58,834 bases of DNA from Nostoc sp. DedSLP01 (lineage in GTDB: Bacteria; Cyanobacteriota; Cyanobacteriia; Cyanobacteriales; Nostocaceae): NCBI GenBank assembly GCA_034530875.2, contig JAVRCJ020000040.1, positions 1 through 58,834 of the forward strand, in the 5' to 3' direction. Below, in pieces: positions 1,539 to 40,704 of this stretch (position 1 is the first letter of the stretch; each line of letters opens with the position of its first letter). The position numbers were made by a program, and so were the translations under genes. The notes beneath the pieces are model-generated. The model was not told where the DNA came from, did not search any database, and worked only from the letters and a program-made list of their open reading frames with translations.

Positions 1539-4500
1539 GTGAATGGCTTAAATAACATGAATATGCAGAATAAAGGCATTATTTTCATTGATTTATCAGT
1601 TAAAGACTACGAAGTATTGCTAAATTATCTTGTATCAAAAATTGAGGTAATAGTTCTCGATCCCAGCCAAGATGGCGTAGAACAAATTACTCAAACACTG
1701 TTACAACGCCCTAAAGTTGAAAGCGTCCACATTGTCTCTCATGGTTCTCCCGGTTGCCTCTACCTGGGTAATACGCAACTCAGTCTCAGCAGTTTAGAAC
1801 GCTACACTCAACAGCTACAAACTTGGTTGTGTCCAATTCTGATACTCTACGGCTGTAAAGTCGCTGCTGGCGATGCGGGAGAGGAATTTTTGCAGAAGTT
1901 GCATCAATTGACTGGGGCAAATATTGCGGCTTCTAGTACACTCACAGGTAATGCTGCGTTGGGTGGAGATTGGAATCTACAGGTTCAAGTCGGCGAAGAT
2001 TTTTCAATTGCAAATCCTATAGCTTTGGCATTTCGCCAAGAAGCACTTTCTACTTATACCGGAGTACTTGCTCCTGGTAGCCTCGACACTACCTTTGGAG
2101 TTGGTGGTAAAGTCATTACAGATATCGGTGGTAGTGACACAGCTTATGGTGTTGCCGTTCAAGCAGATGGCAAGATTGTAGTAATAGGTGAAAGTTACAA
2201 TAGCAATGGTAACTTTGCCGTAGCTCGCTATAATCCCGATGGTAGCCTAGATAGTAGCTTTGGCAATGGTGGTAAAGCGATCGCCGATTTTGCTAACCAA
2301 ACAGATAAACCTTATAGCGTTACCATTCAGCCTGATGGCAAAATTTTAATCGCGGGAATTACTTACAATGGTAACCAAACTGATGCTGCTCTTATACGCT
2401 ACAACCCTAATGGTAGCTTAGATACCACCTTTGGTACTGGGGGAAAAGTTGTTACCAACTTTGAGGGGAAAAACGAATGGATAAAAAGCGTTGCCGTCCA
2501 GTCAGACGGCAAAATTATTGTGGGGGGATATCTTAACCCCAATGACGGTACTCTCAATAATGACTTTCTCCTGATACGTTACAACTCAGACGGTAGTCTG
2601 GATACTAGCTTTGGTAATGGCGGTAGGGTTCTTACTTCCATGAGCGACGGACAAGACGGCATTGCAAGTATCCTGATCCAGCCAGACGGTAAAATTGTAG
2701 TGACTGGCGGTGTCATGGTTAATGGCAGCAATAACTTTATCTTGGCACGTTACAACTCCAATGGCAGTATAGATACTAATTTTGGCAGTAGCGGTAAAGT
2801 AATCACAGACTTTCCTGGCACACATGACTTTGGATATAGTGTTGCTCTTGGGTCTGATGGCAAAATTGTCGTAGCGGGAGGTACTGGGGACATTGGTCTC
2901 AATGGAAATTTTGCTCTCACACGCTATAACTCCGATGGCACTCTGGACGCTAACTTCGGTAATGGGGGTAAGGTTGTTACAGATCTAGGCGGCAACGATG
3001 TTGGTCTAAGTTTGGCTATTTTACAGGATGGCAAAATTGTAGTATCTGGTTTTGCTGAAAACGCAAACGCTAACCGCGATTTTGCTTTAGTTGCTTACAA
3101 CTCGAATGGCAGCTTAGATACCAGCTTTGGCGATAGCGGTAAAGTCATAACTCCCGTTAACGGTAGTTCTTTTCAAGAGACTAGGGTTGCCGTCCAGTCT
3201 GACGGTAAGATTGTGGTTACAGGCAGTGACAGCGGTAACTTTGTTGTAGCACGTTACGAGGCACCCTCTAGTAACGTTCCTACTCCTTTGAATGTCAGTT
3301 ATTACAAACTAGCAACTAGCGACTTTCTCCAAGACTGGTCAAATTCTAATTTAATTACTAGCGATGATAATTGGAGTAATTTACCCAGTATTAGAGGTTT
3401 TCGAGGTGATGGTTTAGTCAGTAGCACGGGTACTAACCCACAAACATTACTAACTGATAGTTCTGCCACCCCTATTGATGTCAATGCTAATCAAACTAAT
3501 CCAAATACCTACACAAATAGCGGGATTACAGAATTCGCATTGAGCAATCCAACTATTGCGCTGAGAGGTTCATCAACTGCGACAGCACCGCATTTAGTTA
3601 TTTATTTAGATGCTACTGGACAGCAAAATCTCCAACTTAGTTTTACTTTACGTGACATAGATACCTCAATACGCGATGCCATTCAATCTGTTGCTGTACA
3701 ATACCGCGTTGGGGAAACAGGAAATTTCATCAATCTGCCAGCAGCTTTTGTACCTGATGCTTCTAATAACGCCTCAAGCTCAGCGTCTTACGACGCGCGG
3801 GAAGCACGCATCAGTGTCTTATTGCCACCCGAAGTTACCAATCAGACGAAAGTCCAAATTCGCTTTATTACTACTGATGCCAATGGAGAAGATGAGTGGA
3901 TTGGGGTAGATGATATCAAGGTTACGAGCAAACCTATTAGCACAAATCAAGCACCAGTAGCTAAAAATGATAGTTACTTGATTGCGGCAAACGGACAATT
4001 ACAGACTGGTGCTGCAATTACAGCACTGACCTTAGATAGCGATCGCGGTAATTATATCGGTCAGAGCGATTATTATAGCTATACTCCCGCCACAGGTAAT
4101 TTCAGTGCTGTCCGTGCTTATCCTAGTAATTCCAGCAGCAATAATGCTATCCGCATCAGCTATTCTGAGACGGGATCTGGCGGTCACTGGTGGGATCTGG
4201 AATTTGCAGCGCCATTTAATGCTCCCCTGACAGCAGGGACTACATACACAGGTGCAGCACGTTTCCCATTCCAAAATTCTAATCAGCCTGGTTTAGATGT
4301 CGGTGGTGATGGACGCGGCTATAACACCCTCACAGGTCAGTTTACAGTCAACCAAATCACCTATGGTTCTGGCGACGAAATCCTCAACTTTGATGCCACC
4401 TTCCAAGAATACGGTGATGGCGACCCTGCTAGCGAAAGCTTCAAAGGCCGCATTCAATACCGCGCTACCTCCAACAATTTAGTTGCTGGTGTATTAACCA

Positions 4501-24412: not shown

Positions 24413-27400
24413 TTAAGAATTAGCAAGTCGCAAGAATTCTTTACGCAAAGGTGTTGGTGGTGCGAGTGTTAGCACTGAAGGAATGCGCGATGGTTCTGCA
24501 AGGCGTAGTAGTTCGTAACCGATACCAGCAAGTCCGGTCATGAGTCCGGGCGTTTCCACTCCTAATGGCACTCCACACAACCAGCCATGTTGATTGATGC
24601 TTTCGAGGATGATAGCTGCAAGGGAGTTAACTTTTGAATGCAAGTTGGAGTCGTTAAGGGTAAGGCTTGCCAGCAACAACATCTCTAAATTACCCAAATC
24701 CCCATGACATAAACAGTGGTTAAGTCCAAAGCCTTGAGTCAGAGTAGTCTTGAGTACTGTATCAATTTCTAAACGAATTTCAGCATTATCGAGATAGGAT
24801 AGCGATCGCAATCTTCCTAATCCAACTCCTGGCGCACCATGACACCAAGCGGTTATAAAATTAACTGGCTCTTGGTTTCCTGAGAGAACTGTATTTTCCA
24901 ACTCGCGCAAATCTGGCCAATTACCTACTCTGTGACATAAGAGACTTTGTTCGTAAGTAATAGCTTTTAGGGCTACTTTGTAATAACGCTCATCACTCGT
25001 AATTGCTGAGAGTTCCAGTAACGCCGAAGCTATGCCAGCTACCCCGTGAGAAAATCCCGCTAGTGGTTTCTTCCCCATTCTTGGAGCAATCCAACCCATA
25101 CCATTTTCCATTGTTTGGACACGGGCGAGGAGGCGATCGCCACATTGAATTGCTGCTGCAAGTGTACTTTGAGAGGGAGCAATTTGATACAAGTTGAGCA
25201 AACTAGCAATACAACCAGCAGCACCGCCAATAATATCTAATTGTTCATCTTTAGCAATTAAATTTGGGAGCAAATCAACCAGGGATTCAGCTTGTACTAG
25301 CAGTTCTGTTTCATCCCATAAAACTCCTAAATGAGTCAGAGTATAAATGATACCTCCCCAGCCATTAAACCCGCCTATTGCAGTAGTGAATGCTTTGTCA
25401 GTCTCTAGTTGACGCTGCATTGTGCTCAATGCATTTTTTGCCAGAGTAGTGTAGCGATTTTCTTGTGTCACACTACCAAGGTAGGCAAGAAATAAAATCA
25501 CTCCCGATAGACCATCGTAGAGGTCGATTCTCAAAGATGCCAAAGTCCAGTATTTTTCATTGATTAGTGTTAAGCCAAGCCAAGAAACATTTTTATCGTC
25601 TCGCAATGCTAGTGATTCTAAGCGATCGCCTACTGCCAAGGCTGCTTTTATCAGTTGTTCGGGATTAGCATTGTTTCGCGGTTCGCTCAGATGGTAACTA
25701 GGCCAATTTACTTGTGCCTCTCCCATGACCAAAGTTGTCACAGATGCACGAATAAACCACAATTGTTGCTGCAAATCAGCTTCATTAAGTAGTTGAATAC
25801 GTCGATGCACTCCTTGCATACCTGTTTCATCAAAGAAGTCGGCAATTTTTCGATCGCAACTGCTCCAAATAGCACGGGAGTTAGGACGGGTAGTAAACAT
25901 AGGAATGTCACCTTGCCATAAATCGTAGCGTTCGGCCGCAATGATTTTCGCCAGATAAGGTTGTTGCTCGATTCCTACCCATAAACGGTCGAAGTGGCGA
26001 TCGCGTTCTAAAGCATTGCGTAAGAAATCAGGATGGAAGCTTTCTGAAAGCAATAAGCTATAAGTGCGGGTAGATCTAAAAATGACCCGTACTTCGTCCT
26101 CGGCAAAACAAGCTAAAGGCCCATTTTCTGACAACAACTCATCTCGATATTGCAACAGTAGTTGGTAAATAATAGTAAAGCCAGTAATAATTGCCTCGGT
26201 GTAATCCAGTACATTTACTTCAGCATCATTTAAAGTTGGTCGATTCTGACTGCCAAACATAGGCATACGCTCGCGCACAAACCGCATTTCATCAGTGCCA
26301 ATTGCTTCCAAGTGGGAAACGCGATAAGGCGTGAGTTGACCGGCTGTTCCACCTAAACCACTCAAGTCAACTCCTTCTGACTCAGCATTTGCCCAAAGAC
26401 GTTGAGGTAGTAACCCAACTCGTAAAACCGAATAAATAATTTGATTAACTGTAGGCAAGTCTGAGTGCGTAATTTCCATGCCTTCAGTCCGAAGATGAAA
26501 GAGCGACTCTAGGTCAACTAAAACCGGGTGTTCTCCAGCAGCAATTAAATTTTCTAAATGAAAATCTGTAGCTTCTAGAGCATATAGTAATGCTAAGTAT
26601 GCGCCCTGTCGTTCATAAAATCGTTCGATACCGTCAGGCTCCGTGCAGCCTTGAGCGATCGCGAATTCTACCCAGCCATGAGTTTTACGATTTAATATTT
26701 TCAGAATCCGAAATGCTGGATGATTACCACGTTGATTTAGCCAAGTTAGAAGTTGCTGAAAATGTACTTCAATATCAAGCGGTCTAGGCTTATATACTAT
26801 TTGTAAACCAGAGCTAAAATGAGCAATTAGCACCGACCTTCCACCCCGATGAGTATCACCAAGATTACCGTCTATTTTGACTAAGAACCCTGGAGCGTTA
26901 TCTGAACTAAAGATATTAACAATTTCTTTCCAATCTTCACAAAGATGTTGTAGAAATTCCAGGCTAAAATTAACCCATCGGTTAATAGTAATTACTAACT
27001 GACGAGCTAATACAGGATACTCTTGTAATAGAGAAAGCACAATTTCAGGTTGACGTAGATGTTGTAAAAAACTCTGAAATCTCTCTTGTTGGGTATCACC
27101 TGATAATACTCCTTGTAGCCGTGTGACATTAAGTTCTAAAACCATTGTGCGACCCAGCATAGACAAAAGTTGTTCTGGCAGAATGCTAAATAATAAATCT
27201 ACAATGTGATTAGGATTAAAAGGTATATGAAATTGTGTTTTGATGAGTTCTTGAATTTCATTATATAGGCGATCGCATCCTTGATTAATTAAAGGTAGAA
27301 TCGCATCTAAAAAACCAGTTAACTCTGAAGCTGCAAATTCCTCTAAAGATGGCATTGAACGAGAATTAGGATCGGCAAATGCTTGATTTATCTGCGTTAA

Positions 27401-27685
27401 CCAGTCTGGAAGCTCATTGCAACGGTTCTGCACAGTCTCAATAGATTCACCTAAAATTTGGCAAAATTCATCTTCTGTCACACCATCTTGTGCTAAACGC
27501 TGAGAAAAGTAAGAGTTATTACTGAAAGGAGATTGCGATTTCCAACGCTGTATCTGTCGTTTTTGCAGTTCGGGGTTGATATGACTGTTAGTGCGATCGC
27601 TTTGGTTGTTGTGAAGAGATGCAATCCTTTCAGTTAAGGTAGTAGCTTTATACCATGTAGCAGATTGAAAATAAGATTGACTCAT
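24413..27685 (-). CDS. lanM: Class II lanthipeptide synthetase LanM
   Basis: Dehydratase motifs GDTHRGG, YKPR, TDFHLENL and VDLESLF. LanC-like cyclase with GFSHG, AWCHGAPG, CLCHGDLG and GLMTGLAG. Confidence 0.97.
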   Translation of the reverse strand: MSQSYFQSATWYKATTLTERIASLHNNQSDRTNSHINPELQKRQIQRWKSQSPFSNNSYFSQRLAQDGVTEDEFCQILGESIETVQNRCNELPDWLTQINQAFADPNSRSMPSLEEFAASELTGFLDAILPLINQGCDRLYNEIQELIKTQFHIPFNPNHIVDLLFSILPEQLLSMLGRTMVLELNVTRLQGVLSGDTQQERFQSFLQHLRQPEIVLSLLQEYPVLARQLVITINRWVNFSLEFLQHLCEDWKEIVNIFSSDNAPGFLVKIDGNLGDTHRGGRSVLIAHFSSGLQIVYKPRPLDIEVHFQQLLTWLNQRGNHPAFRILKILNRKTHGWVEFAIAQGCTEPDGIERFYERQGAYLALLYALEATDFHLENLIAAGEHPVLVDLESLFHLRTEGMEITHSDLPTVNQIIYSVLRVGLLPQRLWANAESEGVDLSGLGGTAGQLTPYRVSHLEAIGTDEMRFVRERMPMFGSQNRPTLNDAEVNVLDYTEAIITGFTIIYQLLLQYRDELLSENGPLACFAEDEVRVIFRSTRTYSLLLSESFHPDFLRNALERDRHFDRLWVGIEQQPYLAKIIAAERYDLWQGDIPMFTTRPNSRAIWSSCDRKIADFFDETGMQGVHRRIQLLNEADLQQQLWFIRASVTTLVMGEAQVNWPSYHLSEPRNNANPEQLIKAALAVGDRLESLALRDDKNVSWLGLTLINEKYWTLASLRIDLYDGLSGVILFLAYLGSVTQENRYTTLAKNALSTMQRQLETDKAFTTAIGGFNGWGGIIYTLTHLGVLWDETELLVQAESLVDLLPNLIAKDEQLDIIGGAAGCIASLLNLYQIAPSQSTLAAAIQCGDRLLARVQTMENGMGWIAPRMGKKPLAGFSHGVAGIASALLELSAITSDERYYKVALKAITYEQSLLCHRVGNWPDLRELENTVLSGNQEPVNFITAWCHGAPGVGLGRLRSLSYLDNAEIRLEIDTVLKTTLTQGFGLNHCLCHGDLGNLEMLLLASLTLNDSNLHSKVNSLAAIILESINQHGWLCGVPLGVETPGLMTGLAGIGYELLRLAEPSRIPSVLTLAPPTPLRKEFLRLANS

Positions 27686-27820: not shown

Positions 27821-28075
27821 TTAAAAAGGACATCGGCAACGCCCAGTTACAGTACTTGGACAACCACACTCAGCAGTAACAGTACAAACACGACCACCTG
27901 AAATATGAAAACTAAATCCTCCTTCAATTCCGTTTATTTCTTCATCCGTCAAATCAACTAGTCCAGCAGGATTGTCTGGAATTTGAGCGCGTTGAGCTTC
28001 AGTTAGGCTGGAGCGATATTCTTCATCTTTCCAAGCGCGAACGACATCGATATCGTTGATATTGATATTACCCAT
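27821..28075 (-). CDS. lanA: Mersacidin/lichenicidin-family class II lanthipeptide precursor
   Basis: Leader DVVRAWKDEEYR..L...P.NPAG..LTDEEINGIEGG. Core FSFHISGGRVCTVTAECGCPSTVTGRCRCPF. AGGAG RBS upstream. Confidence 0.95.
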   Translation of the reverse strand: MGNININDIDVVRAWKDEEYRSSLTEAQRAQIPDNPAGLVDLTDEEINGIEGGFSFHISGGRVCTVTAECGCPSTVTGRCRCPF

Positions 28076-28810: not shown

Positions 28811-29581
28811 CTAATAATGCTGTTCAGTACCCGAAACAGTCCTAGTATTTGTTTGTAGCCAATCTTGAAAAAGTGAGTCTAAGACTTGCTTTCTGATTTC
28901 ACTGAATTCAGCCGGGAAACACTTTTCAACCCTAAGAATGTGATAACCCAATTTTGTATTGATTGGCCCAATTACTTCGCCTGCTTTTGCTTGAGAAATA
29001 GCTTGTGTAATTTCTGGCATCAATTCTGATAGAAAACGCACACCAACAAAGCCACCATTTTGTTTAGATTGTTTACCTTTGGAGTATTCTATTGCTAAAA
29101 CACAGAATGACTCATTTGACTCTTGAATTGCATACATTACTTTTTGAGCTTCTGTGAGGTTGCTGACTAAAATTTGAGATAAGGCTACACGTTGATAATC
29201 TTTACGATTGCTTAGATAATGAGCATCAACAGCATCTCCAAACAGATATTCTTTTAACTTGTTTGTCAGTAGTTCTAATCTAATACCCTGAGACCAATCT
29301 TCTACGCTAATTTGCTGTTGTTGTAGCCATGCTAAGGTTTCAGAAACTCCTAGTAACTTATGTTCGAGCCGAAATTTATCTCCGGCTATTTGCAATTCTT
29401 CATCAGTCACAGTCAAATCAAACTCTTGACAGATATTTAAAATGAACCGATCGCGTGCGGCTAAAACTGCATATTCAGCTATTTTATGAGAATAGCGCAG
29501 GTAGGCAATTACATCTGCATCTGTTGCTTGGGGAATTTCTGGAACAGATGATAATTCTGTGTTTGTCAAAGTTTCTGTCAT
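28811..29581 (-). CDS. PpiC/SurA-type peptidyl-prolyl isomerase-like protein
   Basis: VTDEELQ, F..LA.EYS, GGFVG, GEVIGPI.T.LGYHILRV rotamase motifs. Confidence 0.85.
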   Translation of the reverse strand: MTETLTNTELSSVPEIPQATDADVIAYLRYSHKIAEYAVLAARDRFILNICQEFDLTVTDEELQIAGDKFRLEHKLLGVSETLAWLQQQQISVEDWSQGIRLELLTNKLKEYLFGDAVDAHYLSNRKDYQRVALSQILVSNLTEAQKVMYAIQESNESFCVLAIEYSKGKQSKQNGGFVGVRFLSELMPEITQAISQAKAGEVIGPINTKLGYHILRVEKCFPAEFSEIRKQVLDSLFQDWLQTNTRTVSGTEQHY

Positions 29582-29593: not shown

Positions 29594-30622
29594 CTATGAA
29601 AGATAATTTTGGCGATAAATCAATTTTTCCGATGGAATTTGGTTAATTGACAAATGATTGCGATGTAAATCGCCGTAGAGATTTAGATATTCCACTTCAG
29701 AGGTCGTTAGTTTACCTTGCTGAACGCCAGCGATCGCTGCATCAATTTCTTGGCGGTTAGTCAAACCTGTTAAGCAAACATCGACACAATTTTGCGTCAA
29801 CGAATATCGATATAGATCGGGGACACTAGGTCGCCAACATTTTTCGGGTAAACTACTCGGAACATCTAGGATAGGGCCTGAGTGAGAACCTGTAGATTTG
29901 AAGGTGACGATACCTGGTCGAGAAGAGTCTTGCGCGTGCAATTGATTGAATACCCGACTCTGAGCAGATCGATGCGCGATGTTGTGTCTGACCATGACCA
30001 CATCTAATAAGTCACTATGCAAGCACTGTTGTGCTAAATTAATATCGTGAAAAGAAGCACCGATATAGCGGACGGCTCCCATTTTTTTGAGTCTTTCGGA
30101 AGCGCCAAACATTCTTTCAATGGCGCGTTGATAAACGCTATTGCTACCTCTTAAATCTGGAGAAAGTTGCAAGCAATTCTGTAAAATTGACCGATCGCTA
30201 GAACCAATCCAGCCCCAAAACAACACATCAATATAATCAATTTCTAGCTCTACAAATTGATCTAATAAAGCAGCTAATGCCATTTCTGGACTCTTGATGT
30301 ATGTCACAGTTGCCAACACTACTTTCTCTCGCACTGAAGAGCGACGGCTACACATCTGGCGTAATGCTCCAGACATGGAACTGTAAATATAGTGGTGCAA
30401 GTCGCTAGAGTAGAAAAAGTAGTTAATTCCACGCTCAAAGGCGTAAAGAGTATCTTCACTTGAGATGCTACCACCACCACCCAAACCAAGACAGCTGACT
30501 GTTAAATCAGTACGTCCCAATTTGCGGTAAAACGATAAGTCGGACTCTGGGAAGTTATGTGTTACATGACTAACTTCGCTGGCTGGGGTGACTTGAGGCG
30601 GTGCAAGATCGGTTAGTTTCAT
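29594..30622 (-). CDS. Aldo/keto reductase fold protein (atypical active site)
   Basis: YRKLGRTDLTVSCLGLG, GINYF, DYIDV and G.VRYIGAS motifs. Start overlaps the HopA1-like stop (ATGA). Confidence 0.8.
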   Translation of the reverse strand: MKLTDLAPPQVTPASEVSHVTHNFPESDLSFYRKLGRTDLTVSCLGLGGGGSISSEDTLYAFERGINYFFYSSDLHHYIYSSMSGALRQMCSRRSSVREKVVLATVTYIKSPEMALAALLDQFVELEIDYIDVLFWGWIGSSDRSILQNCLQLSPDLRGSNSVYQRAIERMFGASERLKKMGAVRYIGASFHDINLAQQCLHSDLLDVVMVRHNIAHRSAQSRVFNQLHAQDSSRPGIVTFKSTGSHSGPILDVPSSLPEKCWRPSVPDLYRYSLTQNCVDVCLTGLTNRQEIDAAIAGVQQGKLTTSEVEYLNLYGDLHRNHLSINQIPSEKLIYRQNYLS

Positions 30623-31710
30623 CGTTCTAATGGGGTGTAGATATCTTCAGAGTTGGCATTGAGATAAGAATGTTGCCAGTCAATTCCTAGAAGATAGAAA
30701 TGTTGATGAATAAATTCCATACGGCTTTGGGGTGATTCATCACCTTTTTGGCGAGCTTCTAGTAAGGCATTGGCAACAATTTGGCAACGGTTCATCCCAA
30801 AACTTTCAGACTCAGCAAATTTGAAATCGGGTTCTTCTGCTAAAGCAATTCCAGGGGCGAGAAATTTTGTAAATAGGGGTACTTCTGTGCGGAAATAGGA
30901 TTGCATTTCCGCATAAATATTTCTTAGCACTTGCCAGATTGCTTGATAATTGCTTTTCTCAAAGTAGAGAACACCACTGTCATACCGTCCGTAATCAGAG
31001 GGGTTGTATAACACTTTAAAAGTGAAGGGAATTCCGATTTGGTTTAAGTGCTGTGTCAGGCTTTCCATCAAGGCAACTGCACCTTCAGGTAGCAAGTTAA
31101 AGTAAACTCTGACTGTCTGAGGAGAAGTGTCTGGCCCAGCATCGCCCACAGCCATGTAAAATCCATTTTGAACTAGATTTCGCGGCATCCGAATAGCAAC
31201 TAAGTCGCCGATAGATGCCGATCGCTCGCTAGGTTGTAAATGGCGATCGCGCTCAATATGCAAAGTTAAACCGCCCTTGGTGACTGCGAGGCTCCCATCA
31301 CTTTCTTGGCGCACCAGTAACCAACCTGGGTCAAAGTAACCTTCACCAAGATTACTTTTGTGTAGGCGCTCGTAAAACTCTACGTCTACTCCTAAAAAAG
31401 TATTGTTCTCTAAATTTTGATGTCGTGCTAAGTCAGTCGAACGAGCATCTTTTGCTAACTCAGATCGTAGAGAGCCATTGTAATAAATGCCGTAAAGAAA
31501 ACTTTGCAGTTGGATACTTAAATATTTATTTTGCAAATCCAAAGGTGTTCGCTGAAAACGGGCTATTATCTCAGCAGGAATATCCAAGGGTTTGTAAGCT
31601 GGATGGCTAATACAGAAGTCGGACTTAATTTGAATATTGTTGGCTATGTCTTGCAGAGAATCTAGCACAGAAGTTGATATTGAGCTTTGAGGAGAATCTA
31701 GTAATTGCAT
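30619..31710 (-). CDS. HopA1-like protein (putative phospho-Ser/Thr lyase, LanY-like)
   Basis: GYFDPGW, VRVYFNL, FTFKVLYNP..YGRYDSGVLY, PLFTKFLAPGIALAEEP, ESFGMNRC. Adjacent to an APH kinase. Confidence 0.85.
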   Translation of the reverse strand: MQLLDSPQSSISTSVLDSLQDIANNIQIKSDFCISHPAYKPLDIPAEIIARFQRTPLDLQNKYLSIQLQSFLYGIYYNGSLRSELAKDARSTDLARHQNLENNTFLGVDVEFYERLHKSNLGEGYFDPGWLLVRQESDGSLAVTKGGLTLHIERDRHLQPSERSASIGDLVAIRMPRNLVQNGFYMAVGDAGPDTSPQTVRVYFNLLPEGAVALMESLTQHLNQIGIPFTFKVLYNPSDYGRYDSGVLYFEKSNYQAIWQVLRNIYAEMQSYFRTEVPLFTKFLAPGIALAEEPDFKFAESESFGMNRCQIVANALLEARQKGDESPQSRMEFIHQHFYLLGIDWQHSYLNANSEDIYTPLER

Positions 31711-31735: not shown

Positions 31736-32902
31736 TTAAACTAAAGAAGCTTTACCATGAGCGAGTTGTGATTCCGCAACTCCAAAAACTGTTGAGATTG
31801 ATTGTTCTGGACGACACAACAAACTTTTGGCAACTTGAAGCATACAGATACCAATATTTCCAAAAGATTTTTGATGCTGAATCATTGCTTGAATTTGTTG
31901 AATTATGGCAAGTCCAGAAAACTGCACAACTCGTTTGAGAAAATCAGGGCGATGCTCTAAAATTTCTGGAAAGTTTGCCAAATATGCTTGAGTTAAAGCA
32001 GCAATGGAAGGCTGAAGTTGTTCGAGTGGTGTCATCGCTAACCGCAAAGATTCTTCGACATCAATAGATTTACTCACCACTAAACTATTTAGCCAAAGTT
32101 GTAAATAACTGGCGATGAGCATTCCTAAGTCAAATGCAGGATCGCCCCAAGCGCCTCGTTCCCAGTCAATAAGTCTAATTGCACTATTAGTTGTCAGGAC
32201 TTCTTGCCAATTGTTGTGCAGGAGGATATTGTTCAGCTTGAGGTCATTGTGTGTGAGACAGCAAGGTACGGATTTAGCGATCAGTTGTGCGATCGCTTTT
32301 CCCAGGCTGTCATATCTTTGATAGAGAGCAAAGAATTTCAATCCATCTGCGGGAACCCGACCGAAAACTTCAGGAGTAATCTTGTCTAGCCCAAGATTAA
32401 AGTTAAGAACTTGTTCAATAGATGTGTCATCAGATTGCTGAGCGAAAAATTCTTGGTAGTCGTGACGTTGGAAAGTCGCTTGATGGATGGTAGCTAAAGT
32501 AGTACCAATTGCAGATGCGATCGCAGTTGGAAAAATATTCTCCTTGATATAAAAATCAGCTAGATCGCAATAGTCATTGAGATAATTAAAAACAATAATC
32601 GAATGCTCTACATCAAAATGTAAAGCCTCTGAAAGCATTGAACAAATATGACTGAGTTCATGAGTTTGTTGAAAAAACTCATGAATTCGCCATTCACTCA
32701 AAAATTCACCCGCAGTTTTCCCTTCTTGATTGTGACGTTCCTGTTTAACAAGGAGTTTACGTTCATCGTCTAAACTCAGTAATAAGTTGAAGTTTTTCGC
32801 AGCTTTTGGCTCGACTTGTTTCAAATCCTGCTCTTGCAGAAAAAATAACTCTTGATTAAATAAGTACTGGAAAACGTTTTGAGAACTTAATAAAAATGTC
32901 AC
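31736..32902 (-). CDS. Aminoglycoside-phosphotransferase-family kinase (LanK-like)
   Basis: KNFNL, LLVKQE, CLTHNDLKLNNILL, LIDWE..WGDPAFDLG. GTG start at 32902 after a G-rich RBS. Confidence 0.88.
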   Translation of the reverse strand: MTFLLSSQNVFQYLFNQELFFLQEQDLKQVEPKAAKNFNLLLSLDDERKLLVKQERHNQEGKTAGEFLSEWRIHEFFQQTHELSHICSMLSEALHFDVEHSIIVFNYLNDYCDLADFYIKENIFPTAIASAIGTTLATIHQATFQRHDYQEFFAQQSDDTSIEQVLNFNLGLDKITPEVFGRVPADGLKFFALYQRYDSLGKAIAQLIAKSVPCCLTHNDLKLNNILLHNNWQEVLTTNSAIRLIDWERGAWGDPAFDLGMLIASYLQLWLNSLVVSKSIDVEESLRLAMTPLEQLQPSIAALTQAYLANFPEILEHRPDFLKRVVQFSGLAIIQQIQAMIQHQKSFGNIGICMLQVAKSLLCRPEQSISTVFGVAESQLAHGKASLV

Positions 32903-33010
32903 AACTAAACCCCCATAAAATGTATTACACAAGGCTGGCTTATTGCATAGATGATTTTTTTGAAACTTGATTAGCTTTAATTTGCTAGGATGCTTTATGC
33001 AAATTCGTCC

Positions 33011-33060
33011 TAACGCACCAAAAATCTGGGATGGTGTGTTAGTTTGTGGCATAACACACC
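33011..33060. repeat. REP-like palindromic repeat between the precursor array and the kinase
   Basis: TAACGCACC...GGTGTGTTA...TAACACACC. Confidence 0.55.
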
Positions 33061-33085: not shown

Positions 33086-33325
33086 TTAATTGCGCTTAAA
33101 CAAGCGTCCAACACCACCAATTGCTCCAGCTATACCAATAGCACATTGCTGTGAGGAACGAGCGCCAATATATCCCAGCCTAGCTGCTGATAAAATTAGC
33201 GCTGGTGTGAAACCACCGTAGATATTTTCAAATTCATTGTCACCAAAATCGTCCATATAGCCTTCAGAATCACAAAATAAATCAGAACCCTTAGGACGCA
33301 AATCGGAAATATTGATACTAGCCAT
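33086..33325 (-). CDS. Double-glycine RiPP precursor P5
   Basis: Leader MASINISDLRP.GSDLF.DSEGY...ENIYGG. Core FTPALILSAARLGYIGARSSQQCAIGIAGAIGGVGRLFKRN. Confidence 0.88.
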   Translation of the reverse strand: MASINISDLRPKGSDLFCDSEGYMDDFGDNEFENIYGGFTPALILSAARLGYIGARSSQQCAIGIAGAIGGVGRLFKRN

Positions 33326-33385
33326 TGTTTTGCCTCTTGAATGAAATTAATTGAAATGTAATTAGTAGGTTGGATTTTTTGAGTT

Positions 33386-33447
33386 TCAAAGTCTTCTCGA
33401 AGAAATTGTGTAATTATCATTAAAATCTTTATTCAAGAAGACTTTGA
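33386..33447. promoter_or_regulatory. Long intergenic hairpin between precursors P4 and P5
   Basis: TCAAAGTCTTCT / AGAAGACTTTGA perfect 12-bp stem, extendable with mismatches. Confidence 0.55.
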
Positions 33448-33459
33448 TGGGTTTTGTAT

Positions 33460-33687
33460 TTATAGCCTAGCTATTATGCTCTTGTTGTAGTCATGAATTT
33501 TCCTTGTCGCCATAGAAAATCCATACGTCAACATAAAGACCCCAATTGAGGCACATACAGGAGTAGATAAAGCACCTCCACGCATCAAACCAATTTCATC
33601 ATCATTGATTTCATTGAGATAACTCTCTTTATCTAACAGGAGGTCAAATCCTGTTGCAGAGAGATTGTTAATTGCAATGTTTGCCAT
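33460..33687 (-). CDS. Double-glycine RiPP precursor P4
   Basis: Leader MANIAINNL..TGFDL..DKESYLNEI.DDEI..MRGG. Core ALSTPVCASIGVFMLTYGFSMATRKIHDYNKSIIARL. Confidence 0.88.
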   Translation of the reverse strand: MANIAINNLSATGFDLLLDKESYLNEINDDEIGLMRGGALSTPVCASIGVFMLTYGFSMATRKIHDYNKSIIARL

Positions 33688-33718
33688 ACTAGGTTTCTCC
33701 AGGTAACTATTAACTTAG

Positions 33719-33958
33719 TTAACGACCAACAATCCAGCCAGAAACAGCACCACTTACAGCTACTGCTCCTGAAACTGCATATTTGGCACACTTGGCTGAT
33801 GAAATACGTATTGAGTAGCCAACAGCCCATATAGCAAATGGAATACCACCATAAACTTGATTAGATTCGCTGTAACCGAGTTCATCCATATAGCCTTCAG
33901 AATCGGAAAATAGCTCCAAACCAGTAGGACGCAAATCGGAAATATTAATGTTAGCCAT
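33719..33958 (-). CDS. Double-glycine RiPP precursor P3
   Basis: True start at 33958 (MANINISDLRPTG, AGGAG RBS). Core after VYGG: IPFAIWAVGYSIRISSAKCAKYAVSGAVAVSGAVSGWIVGR. Confidence 0.88.
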   Translation of the reverse strand: MANINISDLRPTGLELFSDSEGYMDELGYSESNQVYGGIPFAIWAVGYSIRISSAKCAKYAVSGAVAVSGAVSGWIVGR

Positions 33959-34002
33959 TGTTGTTCTCCTTGAATTTTTACAACGTTTACCAAGCCAAAT
34001 TT

Positions 34003-34221
34003 TTAACCTATTTTTTTGAGCTGCGCAGTTAGTCTCCAAAAAGGTGGATATATAGGTCTTGGTGTAGGAATAGGACGGCAATAAGGACTAAACCACGGAC
34101 GAGAAATTAATCCACCCTGAATGTTGAGTTCTTCTTCTGATAAATCGTTGATGAATTGTTCAGAATCAGAAAACAGATCGTAACCAGCAGGATGCAGATT
34201 TGAAATTGCAATATTAGCCAT
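34003..34221 (-). CDS. Double-glycine RiPP precursor P2 (Pro-rich core)
   Basis: True start at 34221 (MANIAISNLHPAG, AGGAG RBS). Core after IQGG: LISRPWFSPYCRPIPTPRPIYPPFWRLTAQLKKIG. Confidence 0.88.
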   Translation of the reverse strand: MANIAISNLHPAGYDLFSDSEQFINDLSEEELNIQGGLISRPWFSPYCRPIPTPRPIYPPFWRLTAQLKKIG

Positions 34222-34259
34222 ACTAGCTCTCCTATTGATTGAGGTTACTTTTACTCTTC

Positions 34260-34484
34260 CTATGGTTTTATTCTTGAAGTAGTAGCAGCCCATACTGTAA
34301 CAGCAATACCAGGAGAACCGAAACCAGCACTAGTTACTATACTCAGTACACATCTCCATTTAGACCATTTTCCACCTTGGATATTGCCAACTTCACTGTC
34401 TATTAAATCGTTCATATAGCTTTCGGAATCTTTGAATAGCTCAGAGCCAGTAGGATTCAAATCAGAAATTTCAATGTTAGCCAT
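34260..34484 (-). CDS. Double-glycine RiPP precursor P1
   Basis: Leader MANIEISDLNPTGSELFKDSESYMNDL...NIQGG. Core KWSKWRCVLSIVTSAGFGSPGIAVTVWAATTSRIKP. Confidence 0.88.
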   Translation of the reverse strand: MANIEISDLNPTGSELFKDSESYMNDLIDSEVGNIQGGKWSKWRCVLSIVTSAGFGSPGIAVTVWAATTSRIKP

Positions 34485-34919: not shown

Positions 34920-35477
34920 GTGAACAAGCAAGGTCTATATTTAACAACGTTTCAACGTAAGCTTTTGCTCAAGAGTTTAGAAACAGATTTACGTCCAGAA
35001 TACCGCCGTCGGATTGAAATCATGCTGTTGGCAGATGCAGGTCAATCTCAGACTCAAATATGCGAAGCTTTAGGATGCTCTCAGGAGACAGCACGGCACT
35101 GGATTACTATGGCACAAACAGGCCAGGCTCATCATTGGAATGACCGCCTGATGGGTCGTCCTAAAGCTGTGAATGAGCAATATCTCGCTCGCTTACAAGA
35201 ACTAGCAAATCATAGCCCGCGTGAGTATGGTTATGCATTTGAACGCTGGACAGGACAATGGTTAAGCAAGCATTTGGCAAAAGAGTTTGGCATTAAAGTT
35301 AGTGCTTGCCACGTTAACCGTCTGCTGAAGGAAATGGGACTTTCGACTCGACAGACACGCAAAACAGAGCAAAAAACTGATAACACCAAAAATTCTCGGA
35401 TTACGATTGGCAATCTGTTACCCAATCCAGAGCCTAATTTTCGATGGTCGTTGAATTTCGTTAAAACCAGTAATTAA
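34920..35477 (+). CDS. Helix-turn-helix protein related to the DNA-binding half of IS630 transposases (putative regulator)
   Basis: AGGAGG plus GTG start at 34920. RRIEIMLL...SQTQICEALGCSQETARHW, GRPK, WT..WL..HL..EFGI.VS..HV.RLL..MG. No DDE domain. Confidence 0.75.
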   Translation: MNKQGLYLTTFQRKLLLKSLETDLRPEYRRRIEIMLLADAGQSQTQICEALGCSQETARHWITMAQTGQAHHWNDRLMGRPKAVNEQYLARLQELANHSPREYGYAFERWTGQWLSKHLAKEFGIKVSACHVNRLLKEMGLSTRQTRKTEQKTDNTKNSRITIGNLLPNPEPNFRWSLNFVKTSN

Positions 35478-35489: not shown

Positions 35490-38400
35490 ATGGTTCAGAA
35501 CAAATCAGAATTTTCTCTTCAACAGCTTGCCCAAACTCTGGGTCAGACTCTTACACCACAAGAATTTTCAGACTGCATTAAAAAAATTGAAATTATCCAG
35601 CCAAGTGCAGGCAAACTTTTTTGGCAGACAACAGACGCAAACATAGGCATTTATCTAATTTTGGCAGGTAAAGCCAGATTGCTCGATCGCAGCGATAATT
35701 TAATTGCTTCTATCGGTATAGGAACATCCTTCGCCCAGTTAACGCTATTTCCCGAAGAACAATTTCAACCTTACGCTGTTCGGGCTTCGGTAAATCTCAA
35801 AGTTGGTTATATTCCTGGGGAATGTTTGCGATCGCTCATTCGCAAGTATCCCACCATTGGGCAGCATCTTCACAACCAAGCTGTACTTTGGGATTTATTA
35901 CTGTTATGTCGCCAAAATCCTGCACTGAATAATGTTACTTACGAAGGTGTAACGCAAATTCAACCACTTCTAGAACAGCACAATCTCCAAATTAACAAAC
36001 TGCCATCTTCTTTACTCAAAGACCAGCAACTCTGGATATTACGGCGTGGCGAACTATTGCACACATCAGGACTAAAACTAACTGCTAGCAATATTTACAC
36101 CTTAACTCAGTTACCTAAAGACCGTGGTTGGCAAGTAACTCAAAGTTCGCAACTATACAGCCTCAGCAGTTTACATTGGCAAACTGCATTGCAACACATA
36201 CCACAACTGGCTGAACTCGATGCTAACAACCATCCCGTTGCAGTCTCTCAGCCTGCGATGTTGCCCCAATTGACGGTTGAGCCAAAAAACCAGTTAAAGA
36301 AGAAAATTAGTAAAGCTTACTTCCCTAGCCCAACCGTAAAAATCGGTCATTTATGGCAACGTATTACTCGCCGCTATCCCTTCTTTGAACAACAAAGTGC
36401 GTCTGATTGTGGCGCGGCTTGCTTGGTGATGGTTGGTCGCTACTGGGGTAAGCATTTTAGCATCAATCGGCTGCGAGATATTGCTAACGTCGATCGGGAT
36501 GGGTCATCGCTGCGAGGTTTAGCAGCAGCAGCAGAAAGCATCGGCTTTTCAACTCGACCTGTCAAAGCCAGCCTGGATAAACTTGCACAGCAAAGCCTTC
36601 CGGCTATTGTGCATTGGGAAGGCAAACATTATATCGTTGTCTATGAAGTCAAAGGCGATCGCATTATCGTTGGAGATCCTGGTATTGGTCAGCGTACCCT
36701 CTCACATTCAGAATTTCAAGCAGGTTGGACTGGCTATGCTTTGTTACTCCAACCGACAGCCCTACTGCGAGAAGCCAAAGAAGCCAGCACTCCTTTTTGG
36801 CAGTTTTTTGAATTAACTAAACCTCACTGGCTGGTATTGTTAGAAGTTCTGATTGCTTCTATTCTGATTCAAATCTTTGGCCTAGTCACACCACTATTTA
36901 CACAACTATTACTAGACCGAGTGGTTGTGCAGCGTAGTAACTTAACATTAACGGCTGTCGGTATAGGTTTAATTATCTTTAGTCTGTTTCGAGTTGCTAT
37001 CACTGGACTGCGGCAATATCTTCTCGACCACACAGCTAACCGAGTAGATTTAGCCTTGATTGTGGGATTTATTACCCATACCTTTCGCTTACCTCTAAAC
37101 TATTTTGAGTCTCGTTATGTGGGCGATATCATTTCTCGCGTGCAAGAAAACCGCAAAATTCAACGTTTCTTAACTGGTGAAGCACTATCTATCTTTTTGG
37201 ATTTACTTACAGTATTTGTCTATGTTGGATTGATGTTTTGGTATAGCTGGAAAATGGCATTAATGACCTTAGTGATTGTGCCACCATTTGTCTTATTGGC
37301 ACTGATAGCTACACCTTTTTTACAACGTGTTTCCCGCGAAATTTTTGGCGCACATAACGAAGAAACTGGGTATTTAATTCAATCTTTGACGGGTATCCGC
37401 ACGATTAAATCGATGGCAGTTGAGCAAACTGTCCGCTGGCAATGGGAAGAACTTTTTGGTAAGTCAGTAAAAAAGACTTTTTCGGGGCAAGTCATTGGCA
37501 ACACACTGCAAATATTTAGCTCTGGTATTGAAGCTGTAGTTACCGCAGCATTATTATGGTTTGGTGCGTGGCAAGTGATTCAAAATGAACTCACCATTGG
37601 GCAACTGATAGCTTTTAATATGTTGCTCAGTAATGTGATTAATCCTTTTCAAAGGCTGATTTTGTTGTGGAATGAACTACAAGAAGTACTGATTGCTGTT
37701 GAACGAATTAATGATGTGATTGATGCCGAACCAGAAGAAGATTTACAACATCAACATTATCAATCATTACCAGCAATTCGCGGTTATATTCGCTTTGATA
37801 AAGTTACTTTTCGCTATCATCCAGAAAGTGAGATAAATACCTTAGAAAATATCAGTTTTGAAGTCCAACCAGGACAAACAATTGCACTTGTCGGACGTAG
37901 TGGTTCGGGAAAAACAACTATTTCTAAGCTGATATTAGGATTGTATCTGCCTATAGAAGGGAAGATTTTAATTGATAGCTATGATGTCACTAGTTTATCG
38001 CTGCGATCGCTCCGTCAGCAAATTGGTGTAGTCGATCAAGATACCTTTTTGTTTGGTAGTACAATTCGCGAAAACATTTCTTTAGGCCATCCCGAAGCTT
38101 CTTTAGAAGAAGTTATAGAAGCCGCTAAACAAGCAGGCGCACATCAGTTTATTAAAGAACTACCGATGGGCTACGAAACCCTAATTGGAGAAGGGGGAGG
38201 AACGCTATCTGGTGGACAAAGACAAAGATTAGCGATCGCCCGTGCCCTTGTCGGAAATCCCCGACTGCTAATTTTAGATGAAGCTACCAGCAGCCTTGAC
38301 GCTGAATCTGAACGCATTATTCAGACGAACCTCAACACAATTCTTCAAGATAGAACAACTGTGGTGATTGCACATCGCCTCTCAACAATACGCAATGCAG

Positions 38401-38519
38401 ACAGAATTTTAGTACTAGATAAAGGCTTGTTAGTTGAAAGTGGCACTCACGATGAATTAATGGCTAAACGCGGTCACTATTTCTACCTAAATCAACAACA
38501 ACTGACTCTAGCAATTTAA
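35490..38519 (+). CDS. Peptidase-containing ABC transporter (cNMP-like N-terminus, C39 peptidase, ABC membrane, NBD)
   Basis: C39 motifs QQSASDCGAACL and HWEGKHYIVV..GDP. Walker A GRSGSGKT, LSGGQRQR, ILDEATSSLD. Confidence 0.97.
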   Translation: MVQNKSEFSLQQLAQTLGQTLTPQEFSDCIKKIEIIQPSAGKLFWQTTDANIGIYLILAGKARLLDRSDNLIASIGIGTSFAQLTLFPEEQFQPYAVRASVNLKVGYIPGECLRSLIRKYPTIGQHLHNQAVLWDLLLLCRQNPALNNVTYEGVTQIQPLLEQHNLQINKLPSSLLKDQQLWILRRGELLHTSGLKLTASNIYTLTQLPKDRGWQVTQSSQLYSLSSLHWQTALQHIPQLAELDANNHPVAVSQPAMLPQLTVEPKNQLKKKISKAYFPSPTVKIGHLWQRITRRYPFFEQQSASDCGAACLVMVGRYWGKHFSINRLRDIANVDRDGSSLRGLAAAAESIGFSTRPVKASLDKLAQQSLPAIVHWEGKHYIVVYEVKGDRIIVGDPGIGQRTLSHSEFQAGWTGYALLLQPTALLREAKEASTPFWQFFELTKPHWLVLLEVLIASILIQIFGLVTPLFTQLLLDRVVVQRSNLTLTAVGIGLIIFSLFRVAITGLRQYLLDHTANRVDLALIVGFITHTFRLPLNYFESRYVGDIISRVQENRKIQRFLTGEALSIFLDLLTVFVYVGLMFWYSWKMALMTLVIVPPFVLLALIATPFLQRVSREIFGAHNEETGYLIQSLTGIRTIKSMAVEQTVRWQWEELFGKSVKKTFSGQVIGNTLQIFSSGIEAVVTAALLWFGAWQVIQNELTIGQLIAFNMLLSNVINPFQRLILLWNELQEVLIAVERINDVIDAEPEEDLQHQHYQSLPAIRGYIRFDKVTFRYHPESEINTLENISFEVQPGQTIALVGRSGSGKTTISKLILGLYLPIEGKILIDSYDVTSLSLRSLRQQIGVVDQDTFLFGSTIRENISLGHPEASLEEVIEAAKQAGAHQFIKELPMGYETLIGEGGGTLSGGQRQRLAIARALVGNPRLLILDEATSSLDAESERIIQTNLNTILQDRTTVVIAHRLSTIRNADRILVLDKGLLVESGTHDELMAKRGHYFYLNQQQLTLAI

Positions 38520-38541: not shown

Positions 38542-39924
38542 ATGACAGACGAATTTATTCCACAAAAGCAATTTAGCCACAATGGTCACTACCATAGTCA
38601 TCAACTAGATTTAAAAACTCAATCAAAATCTTTTACACCTATCAGCGAAGATTGGTCTTCTTTAACTAAAGAGTTAATTGATACATTACCACGAGTGTGG
38701 ACACGCGGATTGCTGTATTGGCTAGTAATATTTGCGGCGATCGTTTTACCTTGGGCGATGCTATCTCAAGTAGACGAAACAGGTACTGCTAGAGGAAGGC
38801 TGGAACCTCAAGGTAAAACTCTGAGATTGGATGCACCTGTTACGGGTAAAGTTATATCTATCAAAGTTAAAGAAGGGCAAACTGTCAAAGCTGGAGAAAC
38901 TTTATTGGAGTTGGAATCAGATTTAACCCGCACTGAACTACAACAAACTCAGGCAAAACTTGAGGGTCAACAAAATCGTATAAATCAACTTCAGTTACTC
39001 AAAAACCAACTAACAATGTCTTTACGCACTCAGCAATTACAAAACCAAGCCCAAGAGACTGAACAACTTGCTCAACTCGCTCAAATTAAACAACGTTTAA
39101 ATTCAAGTAAACAAGTATATACTTTGGAAAAAGGCCGCTTGAACTTAGCTAATAACGAAATCCAACGTTATCGATATCTTTCGCAAAAAGGCGCTATTTC
39201 TAAAAGTAAATTAGAAGAAGTAGAAGGCGCTATGTTTGAACGCCAGAGACTTTTAGAACAAGCACAATCAGAGATTCAACAAGCCACAACCGAAATTACT
39301 AAACAACAAAGCACAAATCAACGTCTTAGTCGTGCAGGTGAACTAGCACTTTTAGAAGGTCAAAAACAAATAAAAGAACTCCAGTCTCAAGTTATAGATG
39401 TGCTATCAGAAATTGGCCAAACTCAAAAGCAAATTCAGGCTTTGCAATTTCAACTACAACAGCAAACTCTTCGTACTCCTATTGATGGCACAATTTTTCA
39501 GTTATCTATAAATAATGCCGGAACTGTTTTGCAACCAGGACAAATGATTACTCAAATTGCGCCTAAAGATGTACCTTTGATATTTAGAGCCGAGATGCCT
39601 AGTCAAGAAAGTGGTTTTTTACTTGTAGGAATGCCAGTAAAACTGAAATTTGATGCTTATCCTTTTCAGGATTATGGAGTGGTAGAAGGCAAACTTCGCT
39701 GGATTTCACCAGATTCTAAAGTTGTCGAAACACCTCAAGGCAAGTTAGAAAATTTTGAACTAGAAATTGAAATATCAAAAGCCGCTATTCAAACTAAAGA
39801 AAAAAGGATAGCTTTAACGCCAGGTCAAACAGCAACTGCTGAAGTAATTGTACGGAAGCGCCGTTTGATTGACTTTGTACTAGATCCATTTAAGAAGTTA
39901 CAAAAAAGCGGTTTAGAACTTTAG
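38542..39924 (+). CDS. HlyD-family membrane fusion protein
   Basis: Single TM; GRLEP, VKEGQTVKAGE, coiled coil, TPIDG, KFDAYPFQDYG, LTPGQTATAEV. Confidence 0.95.
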   Translation: MTDEFIPQKQFSHNGHYHSHQLDLKTQSKSFTPISEDWSSLTKELIDTLPRVWTRGLLYWLVIFAAIVLPWAMLSQVDETGTARGRLEPQGKTLRLDAPVTGKVISIKVKEGQTVKAGETLLELESDLTRTELQQTQAKLEGQQNRINQLQLLKNQLTMSLRTQQLQNQAQETEQLAQLAQIKQRLNSSKQVYTLEKGRLNLANNEIQRYRYLSQKGAISKSKLEEVEGAMFERQRLLEQAQSEIQQATTEITKQQSTNQRLSRAGELALLEGQKQIKELQSQVIDVLSEIGQTQKQIQALQFQLQQQTLRTPIDGTIFQLSINNAGTVLQPGQMITQIAPKDVPLIFRAEMPSQESGFLLVGMPVKLKFDAYPFQDYGVVEGKLRWISPDSKVVETPQGKLENFELEIEISKAAIQTKEKRIALTPGQTATAEVIVRKRRLIDFVLDPFKKLQKSGLEL

Positions 39925-39948: not shown

Positions 39949-40704
39949 ATGTTAGATTTACTTGTTGTCTACAAAGATGAAATTATTCACCAAATCAAAC
40001 TTTCTTGCCAACTTCCAAATATTGCTGAGAGTATCATTACTCGCAAAATTATAATAAATACAGCACAAGAACTAGGCATAAAAGTTGAAACAAAAGAACT
40101 TCAAGAAGCCGCAGATAGCTTGCGGGTTTTCAACAGGCTTGAGAGCGCTGAAACAACTTGGTCTTGGTTACAAAAACAAAGTCTTTCTTTAGATAATTTT
40201 GAAGAGTTAGTTTATTATAACGTCATCTCTTCAAAGTTAGCCGAGTATTTATTTGCTGACAAAGTTGAACAGCACTTTGTTGAAAATCAATTAGATTATA
40301 CTCAAGTCATCATGTATGAAGTTGTCTTTGATGATTTAGACTTGGCAATGGAACTTTTTTATGCGATTCAAGAAGATGAGATTAGTTTTTCTGAAGTTGC
40401 CCATCAATATATTCAAGATGATGAGTTACGCCGTAGTGGAGGATATAAGGGAATACTAAACCGTACAGATTTAAAATCAGAAATATCAGCAAAGGTATTT
40501 GCAGCAACTCCACCCCAGCTTCTTATACCAATTGTCACTTATAAAGGAGCGCATTTGATTAATGTTGAAGAAATAATCAAACCCGAATTGAATCAAACTT
40601 TACATTTAACAATTATTTCGCAGCTATTTTCAGAATGGCTGAAGCAGCAATTAGAGCAAGTTCAAGTCGAATACTCAGATATTGGGTTTAACCTTGGCGA
40701 TTAG
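39949..40704 (+). CDS. PpiC/SurA-type peptidyl-prolyl isomerase-like protein
   Basis: ELQEAAD, SFSEVAHQY, GGYKG, PI.T.KG.HLI.V motifs. Last gene of the transporter operon. Confidence 0.85.
   Translation: MLDLLVVYKDEIIHQIKLSCQLPNIAESIITRKIIINTAQELGIKVETKELQEAADSLRVFNRLESAETTWSWLQKQSLSLDNFEELVYYNVISSKLAEYLFADKVEQHFVENQLDYTQVIMYEVVFDDLDLAMELFYAIQEDEISFSEVAHQYIQDDELRRSGGYKGILNRTDLKSEISAKVFAATPPQLLIPIVTYKGAHLINVEEIIKPELNQTLHLTIISQLFSEWLKQQLEQVQVEYSDIGFNLGD

Follow-up and report, generated by a model that had tools for sequence, protein, structure and literature searches.

The predicted cores of five small precursors, P1-P5, encoded by Nostoc sp. DedSLP01 within a stretch of 58,834 nucleotides (the window), each contain a single Cys preceded at a distance of three or four residues by Ser or Thr, and in P3, P4 and P5 this arrangement takes the form of the motif (S/T)(S/T)xxC (SSAKC, STPVC and SSQQC). 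This is a real feature, in which a known chemical rule appears in a new setting. Judged from sequence comparisons, the motif is under selection and is not a product of chance, and the surrounding genes would constitute a class V lanthipeptide cluster of a cyanobacterial, AviCys-free form, albeit with a kinase (LanK) that scores below the LxmK cut-off. It is probable that P3, P4 and P5 would each be closed into a single ring without the help of a cyclase.

Precursors P1-P5

P1-P5 are encoded by five minus-strand ORFs, each preceded on its 5' side by purine-rich sequence, and share an acidic leader with a Gly-Gly end. P1 (34260..34484, 74 amino acids, core at 34260-34370) carries S-K-W-R-C at 34350-34364, with a lone Ser at -4 relative to the Cys, whereas P2 (34003..34221, 72 amino acids) has a Pro/Arg-rich core with S-P-Y-C at 34078-34089 and thus Ser at -3. 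The motif proper is found in P3 (33719..33958, 79 amino acids; S-S-A-K-C at 33788-33802), P4 (33460..33687, 75 amino acids; S-T-P-V-C at 33553-33567, core positions 3-7) and P5 (33086..33325, 79 amino acids; S-S-Q-Q-C at 33143-33157). Re-reading of the five ORFs bears out the claim of a first-pass annotation that five dissimilar cores have one Cys each, with Ser or Thr three to four residues before it, and that P3, P4 and P5 carry the doublet motif; the second Cys of P5 sits in the leader, outside the core. The motif is also internal in P3 and P5, as had been proposed (it starts at core positions 15 and 19, respectively), but that of P4 is not strictly N-terminal, as it starts at position 3.

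P1 and P2 lack a Ser/Thr doublet and instead show the patterns S-x-W-x-C and S-P-x-C. The core of P1 is 83% identical to a core in a homologous locus (L031) that has S-G-W-K-C, and P1-related cores show SSWKC and SSWFC, while S-P-x-C is recurrent around non-doublet Cys in homologues. The N-terminal motif of P4 matches that of another locus (L032); its four nearest core relatives have no Cys, and therefore the ring appears to be dispensable in the P4 lineage. None of the five precursors matched an NCBIfam or Pfam family, and hence they are without a LanM-type leader; in the genome of this strain, all nine matches to their leader family lie at LanK/LanY loci. A promoter scan gave hits at the chance level (21 vs. 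20.4).

When the P1-P5 cores were shuffled 100,000 times, 126 draws placed Ser or Thr at -3 or -4 in every core, and 6 gave at least three cores with the doublet motif. It should be noted that these figures overstate the case, because the pattern was picked post hoc and because P3 and P5 are paralogues (46% identity over 83 columns). The test on homologous precursors described below was therefore relied upon as the real support, and it is on this sequence evidence that extension of the motif mechanism to the P1-P5 family is well supported.

The gene cluster around the precursors

P1-P5 lie upstream of genes for LanK and LanY, with gaps of only 33 bp between P5 and LanK and 25 bp between LanK and LanY. 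LanK (31736..33052, minus strand, 438 amino acids) is an APH-family Ser/Thr kinase (Pfam APH, PF01636, E 1.2e-9), in which H268-N269-D270, N275 and D296-W297-E298 are kept in at least 97% of 131 aligned homologues. Its match to the NCBIfam LxmK model (E 5e-26, 91.5 bits) falls under the cut-off of 315, and because this model is an actinobacterial equivalog, the shortfall lowers the case for orthology but not the likeness. LanY (30619..31710, minus strand, 363 amino acids) belongs to the HopA1-family phosphoSer/Thr lyases (Pfam PF17914, E 4.5e-63) and matches the PDB chain 9dk1_B, 'Lyase' (E 2.4e-8). It has R201, K232, R242 and Y249, and the last three, compared by spacing and through the 9dk1_B alignment, are spaced like K219/R229/Y236 of CaoY, as given in the accessible text of PMC9486802. 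By these alignments, the catalytic residues of both enzymes are intact. The catalytic Lys is missing in 12 of 139 LanY rows, and in none of these 12 was a precursor match found.

The next gene on the same strand encodes an aldo-keto-reductase (AKR)-fold protein (29594..30622, 342 amino acids, PF00248); its start overlaps the LanY stop by 4 bp, and it is coupled to a gene for a PpiC-type rotamase-domain protein (28811..29581, minus strand), with which it co-occurs in 65 of 68 AKR loci. A class II precursor with a mersacidin/lichenicidin-type leader (27821..28075, minus strand; TIGR03898, E 1.4e-19) begins 735 bp past the PpiC gene and has five Cys and no doublet motif. It is accompanied by a LanM (24413..27685, minus strand; TIGR03897, 1046 bits) with an intact Zn-binding cyclase domain (GFSHG877, WCHG947, CHG993). 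Divergently, on the plus strand, lie genes for a helix-turn-helix protein conserved at homologous loci (34923..35477), a peptidase C39-ABC transporter (35490..38519; PF03412, PF00664, PF00005), an HlyD adaptor (38542..39924) and a second PpiC-type protein (39949..40704). The transporter presumably cleaves double-Gly leaders and exports the products, which may be cationic, hydrophobic and singly stapled peptides freed of their leader.

Enrichment of the motif among homologous cores

Eighty loci were gathered, together with 60 from a phylum-wide draw and the three of the strain's own genome, and 139 distinct LanY loci were kept after 3 of 142 were dropped for duplicate LanY. Homologous precursors were found with a leader profile made from P1-P5. 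Excluded were 16 of 384 leader matches without a cleavage site, matches that contained X or exceeded 130 amino acids, cores shorter than 10 amino acids, duplicate cores and the five of the window; cleavage was placed by prediction, which misses the site by at least one residue in a few cases. Among the resulting 336 unique cores, 252 have no Cys, 53 have one and 31 have two or more, so 'exactly one Cys', which the first-pass annotation had put forward as the shared rule, does not describe the family.

The enrichment check that the same annotation had suggested turned out in favour of the motif: (S/T)(S/T)xxC occurs in 46 of the 84 Cys-bearing cores and in 35 of the 53 single-Cys cores, and 76 of the 84 have Ser or Thr three or four residues before a Cys. 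Clustered at 50% identity, the cores give a cluster-weighted motif count of 23.5 (24 of 51 clusters) compared with 2.14 after shuffling (0/2000), and at 40% identity the count is 8.1 vs. 1.52 in 30 clusters (0/2000). Enrichment is weaker under 35% single-linkage (3 of 17 clusters; 2.7 vs. 0.82, 73/2000), so that a small number of ancestral peptides may account for much of the signal. In the first set, the frequency of Ser/Thr is 0.55 at -4 and -3 and 0.04-0.11 at -5, -2 and -1, against a background of 0.18, and the mirror motif C-x-x-(S/T)2 is not enriched. The 49 motif instances represent 33 distinct pentamers at core positions 1-23: 13 begin at the core start and 26 within the first five residues, whereas 21 begin from position 9 onwards. 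Motif Ser codons are of both the TCN (55) and AGY (26) types, and 12 changes of the motif are placed on the LanY tree.

At AKR loci, Cys-free cores are depleted in Ser/Thr doublets (55, where 182 would be expected), whereas 46 of the 70 doublets in Cys-bearing cores have a Cys at +4. A later sample, collected via the AKR gene, provided 80 unseen cores, 10 of them with Cys and 8 of these 10 with the motif (shuffle mean 0.46, maximum 4). In the phylum-wide second set (134 cores), the motif was found in only 2 of 10 Cys-bearing cores and is therefore a property of certain clades.

The AKR-fold protein

PF00248 is the only family that the AKR-fold protein matches (E 1.4e-8, 34.6 bits, cut-off 24), and the top Foldseek matches of its model (pLDDT 66) all have the AKR fold, with a TM of about 0.5. 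In a weak alignment with Kv-beta2 (E 1e-6), the positions that we take to be the Asp, Lys and His of the Asp/Tyr/Lys/His tetrad correspond to F70, V106 and G137, which are invariant (63/63); the tetrad Tyr could be Y78 or the invariant Y80. As far as this weak alignment and our assumed reference positions allow, the protein is without the usual catalytic Asp, Lys and His. It is reasonable to assume that hydride could be transferred to a C=C bond without a carbonyl-activating tetrad. A missing tetrad does not in itself mark a RiPP cluster, because a distant AKR-like ORF elsewhere in the genome (contig C45), whose contig contains no LanK, LanY or LanM match, is without these residues as well.

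The gene is found in 68 of the 139 LanY loci: it is present in 28 of 30 motif loci and absent from two, and it also occurs in 7 of the 22 loci whose Cys-bearing cores lack the motif and in 32 where every core is Cys-free. Co-evolution with the motif was not significant on independent pairs (5 and 3 supported pairs). A search of 401 genomes yielded 14 close AKR matches, 12 near a LanY match and two beside LanMs; at these two loci, the zinc Cys of WCHG is lost in all four LanMs, and 18 of the 19 neighbouring cores are Cys-free, the lone exception beginning with T-T-G-V-C. Among 40 widely flanked AKR loci from a family draw, which overlaps in part with the earlier loci, 33 lie beside LanY, six beside LanM (WCHG is missing from five of these LanMs, including one that is a partial gene) and one on a 4.4-kb contig; in 25 of 29 narrowly flanked loci, LanY is within 1.5 kb. 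Thus, in 39 of the 40 wide loci the gene adjoins that of a Ser/Thr dehydratase, which may be LanY or LanM, and the adjoining LanMs are mostly cyclase-dead, with Cys-free precursors. Since the AKR-fold protein follows two unrelated Ser/Thr dehydratases, with and without Cys in their substrates, it would most simply act on Dha/Dhb.

Three LanJ classes, with folds other than that of AKRs, are known to reduce Dha/Dhb to D-Ala/D-Abu (PMC11519912, PMC10373908; accessible text). Genomic association makes the AKR-fold protein a candidate for a fourth class, which in the P1-P5 pathway may convert leftover Dha/Dhb to D-Ala/D-Abu; we regard the chances of this as about even. A literature search found no paper on an aldo-keto-reductase that acts on dehydroamino acids in lanthipeptides or other RiPPs, although subscription journals were mostly outside its reach and absence from print is not implied. 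A function as an N-terminal pyruvyl-to-lactyl reductase was considered and rejected (the core starts with Ser/Thr in 26 of 188 cores at AKR loci vs. 22 of 148 at others), as was alternation of Ser/Thr as a general rule at AKR loci (lag-2 ratio 0.94). Such alternation is a gramicidin-like pattern. Four or more alternating Ser/Thr units occur in only 8 of 125 Cys-free cores, at six AKR loci.

Proposed ring formation and alternative explanations

In the proposed pathway, LanK and LanY would probably dehydrate Ser/Thr of P1-P5. In P3, P4 and P5, the single Cys would then attack the Dha at -4 without the aid of a cyclase and form one five-residue lanthionine ring, with the second dehydro residue at -3 steering spontaneous closure towards -4. 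P1, with its lone Ser at -4, might form such a ring with poor stereocontrol, and the S-P-x-C of P2 might yield a four-residue ring; both suggestions are weaker than that for P3-P5. The claim that the motif closes a ring without a cyclase after LanK/LanY dehydration agrees with published Streptomyces class Va biochemistry (PMC11186320, PMC12291118; accessible text), and by analogy both steps are likely in P3-P5. Indeed, StnA3 together with StnKY alone gives LL-MeLan in E. coli, and triantimycin A1 (TAM A1) contains an internal LL-Lan (both PMC11186320). In rosin A1, the Dha-Dhb-x-x-Cys ring also closes non-enzymatically, with the DL configuration, and removal of the second dehydro residue leads to a 1:1 mixture (PMC12291118); stereocontrol is lost in rosin T7A. 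Thus, by analogy, an LL ring is favoured for P3-P5 over the DL form, which has precedent; it is not assured, as the first-pass annotation had taken it to be, because the same motif gives DL in rosin A1.

That annotation had also spoken of a missing LanC, which holds for a standalone enzyme only, because the LanM carries an intact LanC-like domain, the sole LANC_like match in the genome, on the same strand as P1-P5 and 5.4 kb downstream of P5. This domain, or another LanC-like domain acting in trans, might cyclise dehydrated P1-P5, with the motif merely making them good substrates; indeed, the LanM of cytolysin contributes to cyclisation of the same Dhx-Dhx-x-x-Cys sequence (PMC11186320), and 5 of the 30 other motif loci likewise contain the LanM cassette. 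However, the LanM unit is separated from the PpiC gene by the 735-bp gap, and in all seven loci where the precursor of the neighbouring LanM was found, the LanM has its own, Cys-rich and motif-less, with a different leader. Moreover, 25 of the 30 loci have no LanM (in 19 of these 25, the downstream sequence covers 7 kb or more), and a LANC_like match, present in 13 of 20 motif-bearing genomes, is absent from seven, where the genomes were picked from motif loci and their assemblies may be incomplete. The motif therefore persists in genomes in which no cyclase domain is found, and we consider cyclisation by LanM quite improbable. Still more improbable is that the AKR-fold protein itself serves as the cyclase or as a template that determines the ring and its configuration, for which the kinase-fold cyclase RosX would be a parallel. 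The skewed distribution of its gene between motif loci and loci with motif-less Cys cores would fit such a role, as would the replacement of Asp, Lys and His among otherwise invariant residues, but the gene is also present where all cores are Cys-free and next to LanMs whose precursors have no Cys, two motif loci do without it, and the association fails on independent pairs.

A further, unlikely alternative is that the products are linear, with Ser/Thr converted to Dha/Dhb or D-residues, the Cys free or engaged between chains, and the motif inherited or structural. Three-quarters of the family (252/336 cores) manage without Cys, enrichment of the motif fades under loose clustering, and a fast reductase could use up Dha ahead of Cys addition. 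Nonetheless, the exact -4/-3 spacing is kept over 33 pentamers at many positions while doublets elsewhere are avoided, and in two published systems (PMC11186320, PMC12291118; accessible text), a Cys thiol that is free and lies four residues away from Dha in this motif needs no help to cyclise. Spontaneous closure of a single ring in P3-P5 thus appears to be the best account of these observations.

Relation to known lanthipeptides

In the papers compared, as far as their text is accessible, characterised class V lanthipeptides come from actinobacteria and depend on LanD/LanX or LanC. The P1-P5 family would be a minimal class V system, in which a kinase, a lyase and a five-residue motif suffice for dozens of unrelated cores, and would constitute a natural library on when substrate control yields LL and when DL rings. 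A new enzyme class for the installation of D-amino acids would be added if the AKR-fold protein is indeed a Dha/Dhb reductase. Of 401 genomes sampled from the phylum, 59 have a LanY match, and of 251 from the taxonomic family, 63 have a close AKR match. It is possible, with somewhat less than even chances, that all of this reflects a large combinatorial platform of cyanobacteria that resembles class V, where a portable (S/T)(S/T)xxC staples unrelated cores without a cyclase and a tetrad-less AKR-fold protein, common to LanK/LanY and cyclase-dead LanM clusters, writes D-Ala/D-Abu as a fourth class of dehydroamino-acid reductase, with a few loci (including one on contig C31 of the same genome) giving alternating L/D hydrophobic peptides.

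Among class II lanthipeptides, cytolysin, carnolysin and haloduracin beta have the same substrate-controlled five-residue Dhx-Dhx-x-x-Cys ring (per the accessible text of PMC11186320). Unlike the putative products of P3-P5, they are made by LanM and contain several rings. The Npn precursors of Nostoc punctiforme are not known to contain Cys. LanJA, LanJB and LanJC, notably NpnJA of Nostoc punctiforme, have the role proposed for the AKR-fold protein and are likewise encoded next to a Ser/Thr dehydratase, but depend on Zn/NADPH, flavin or F420H2 and are not described as having an AKR fold in the accessible text of PMC11519912, PMC10373908 and PMC12328550; the AKR-fold protein matches none of these families.

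Cyanobacterial short ORFs beside LanK/LanY, with a common leader and diverse cores, have been described as uncharacterised 'type-B' class V LanA (Liang et al. 2022, PMC9486802), and the P1-P5 leader family likely belongs to them, as judged from their description; the accessible part of that account discusses neither a core motif nor an AKR gene. According to the accessible text of a 2025 review, class V lanthipeptides are found in actinobacteria only (PMC12328550), and our literature search, with subscription papers mostly outside its reach and absence from print not implied, found no characterised cyanobacterial LanK/LanY product, as judged from titles and the openings of abstracts. In class Vb, mSmoA likewise involves LanK/LanY dehydration and only (Me)Lan rings, without AviCys, but it needs a standalone LanC for its overlapping rings (PMC11186320, PMC12328550; accessible text), and because the genome with P1-P5 has none, the cluster is not class Vb.

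The closest parallels are with class Va (triantimycins stn, cacaoidin cao, rosins ros, pristinins and lexapeptide), in which, as far as the accessible text goes, a standalone LanK and LanY likewise serve several precursors per cluster, and rings are closed without LanC. (S/T)2X2C is the signature of this class at both N-terminal and internal sites (PMC11186320, PMC12291118), so that the shared rule was not hidden, as the first-pass annotation had it, but already described, internal copies included. The P1-P5 cluster differs in having no LanD, LanX, C-terminal Cys/AviMeCys, methyltransferase or F420-dependent LanJC, in pairing a double-Gly leader with a C39 transporter where class Va uses M16 peptidases, in its cyanobacterial host and in the Cys-free nature of most family members. 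Matches to PF02441 (LanD) lie on other contigs only (C6 and C19), the contig with P1-P5 has one LanK-like match, and none of the five precursors has a C-terminal Cys. Because LanD, LanX and a C-terminal Cys are lacking, the cluster is not class Va, and P3-P5 would thus, by analogy, combine ring closure of the Va type with a place outside that class.

Judged from its sequence, the precursor P4 (33460-33687, minus strand) looks like a mosaic. Its N-terminal STPVCASI has a counterpart at the homologous locus L032, and its C-terminal half resembles Cys-free precursors that occupy the equivalent array position in L031, L042, L045 and L050. This composition hints that the Ser/Thr-doublet motif, (S/T)(S/T)xxC, moves as a cassette. 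Alongside the doublet, S-P-x-C is a second conserved Cys rule; a precursor with two tandem S-P-x-C units lies between the aldo-keto-reductase-fold (AKR) gene, a candidate dehydroamino acid reductase, and the rotamase-domain gene PpiC in L034, L037, L038, L040, L046-L048 and L052.

The host genome carries a second locus of the order LanK (kinase)-precursors-LanY (lyase)-AKR-PpiC (contig G000:C31, about 250-6200). Ser/Thr alternates with hydrophobic residues in three of its four cores, two of which end in W-S-W-T-W, and similar cores occur in L063, L064 and L220. If dehydrated and reduced, the alternating cores on C31 would yield alternating L/D peptides. Within the Cys-free cores of AKR-containing loci, neighbouring Ser/Thr pairs are approximately threefold depleted (55 vs. 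182 expected), with no comparable depletion at AKR-less loci (108 vs. 122). A large AKR-less clade (L115, L129, L132-L136, and L142-L165) has near-identical, tandem Cys-free cores whose C-terminal motif is of the G-H-x-A-K-S-(F/Y)-S type.

No precursor match was obtained at an orphan LanK/LanY clade (G000:C24:12560-15444 in the host; L138-L141, L146, L149, L158, L159, and L167-L169), whose LanY has Gln or Glu in place of the lyase Lys. Since LanY matches are present in all 45 sampled genomes of the host's taxonomic family, a widespread non-RiPP role is suggested for some copies. The HTH protein encoded upstream of the transporter at most loci (34923-35477, plus strand; 53-92% conservation) is similar to the IS630 transposase N-terminus and is likely a domesticated regulator.

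LanM-like genes with altered kinase motifs lie directly 3' of LanY in L117, L128 and L071 and may act as cyclase-only partners; two of these loci have multi-Cys precursors that lack the doublet. LanMs without the zinc-binding WCHG Cys accompany an AKR-fold gene in L171 (G050:C41), L172 (G059:C1), L214, L231, L240 and L241, where the precursors have Nif11/NHLP leaders and are mostly Cys-free; these are likely clusters for linear dehydro/D-amino-acid peptides.
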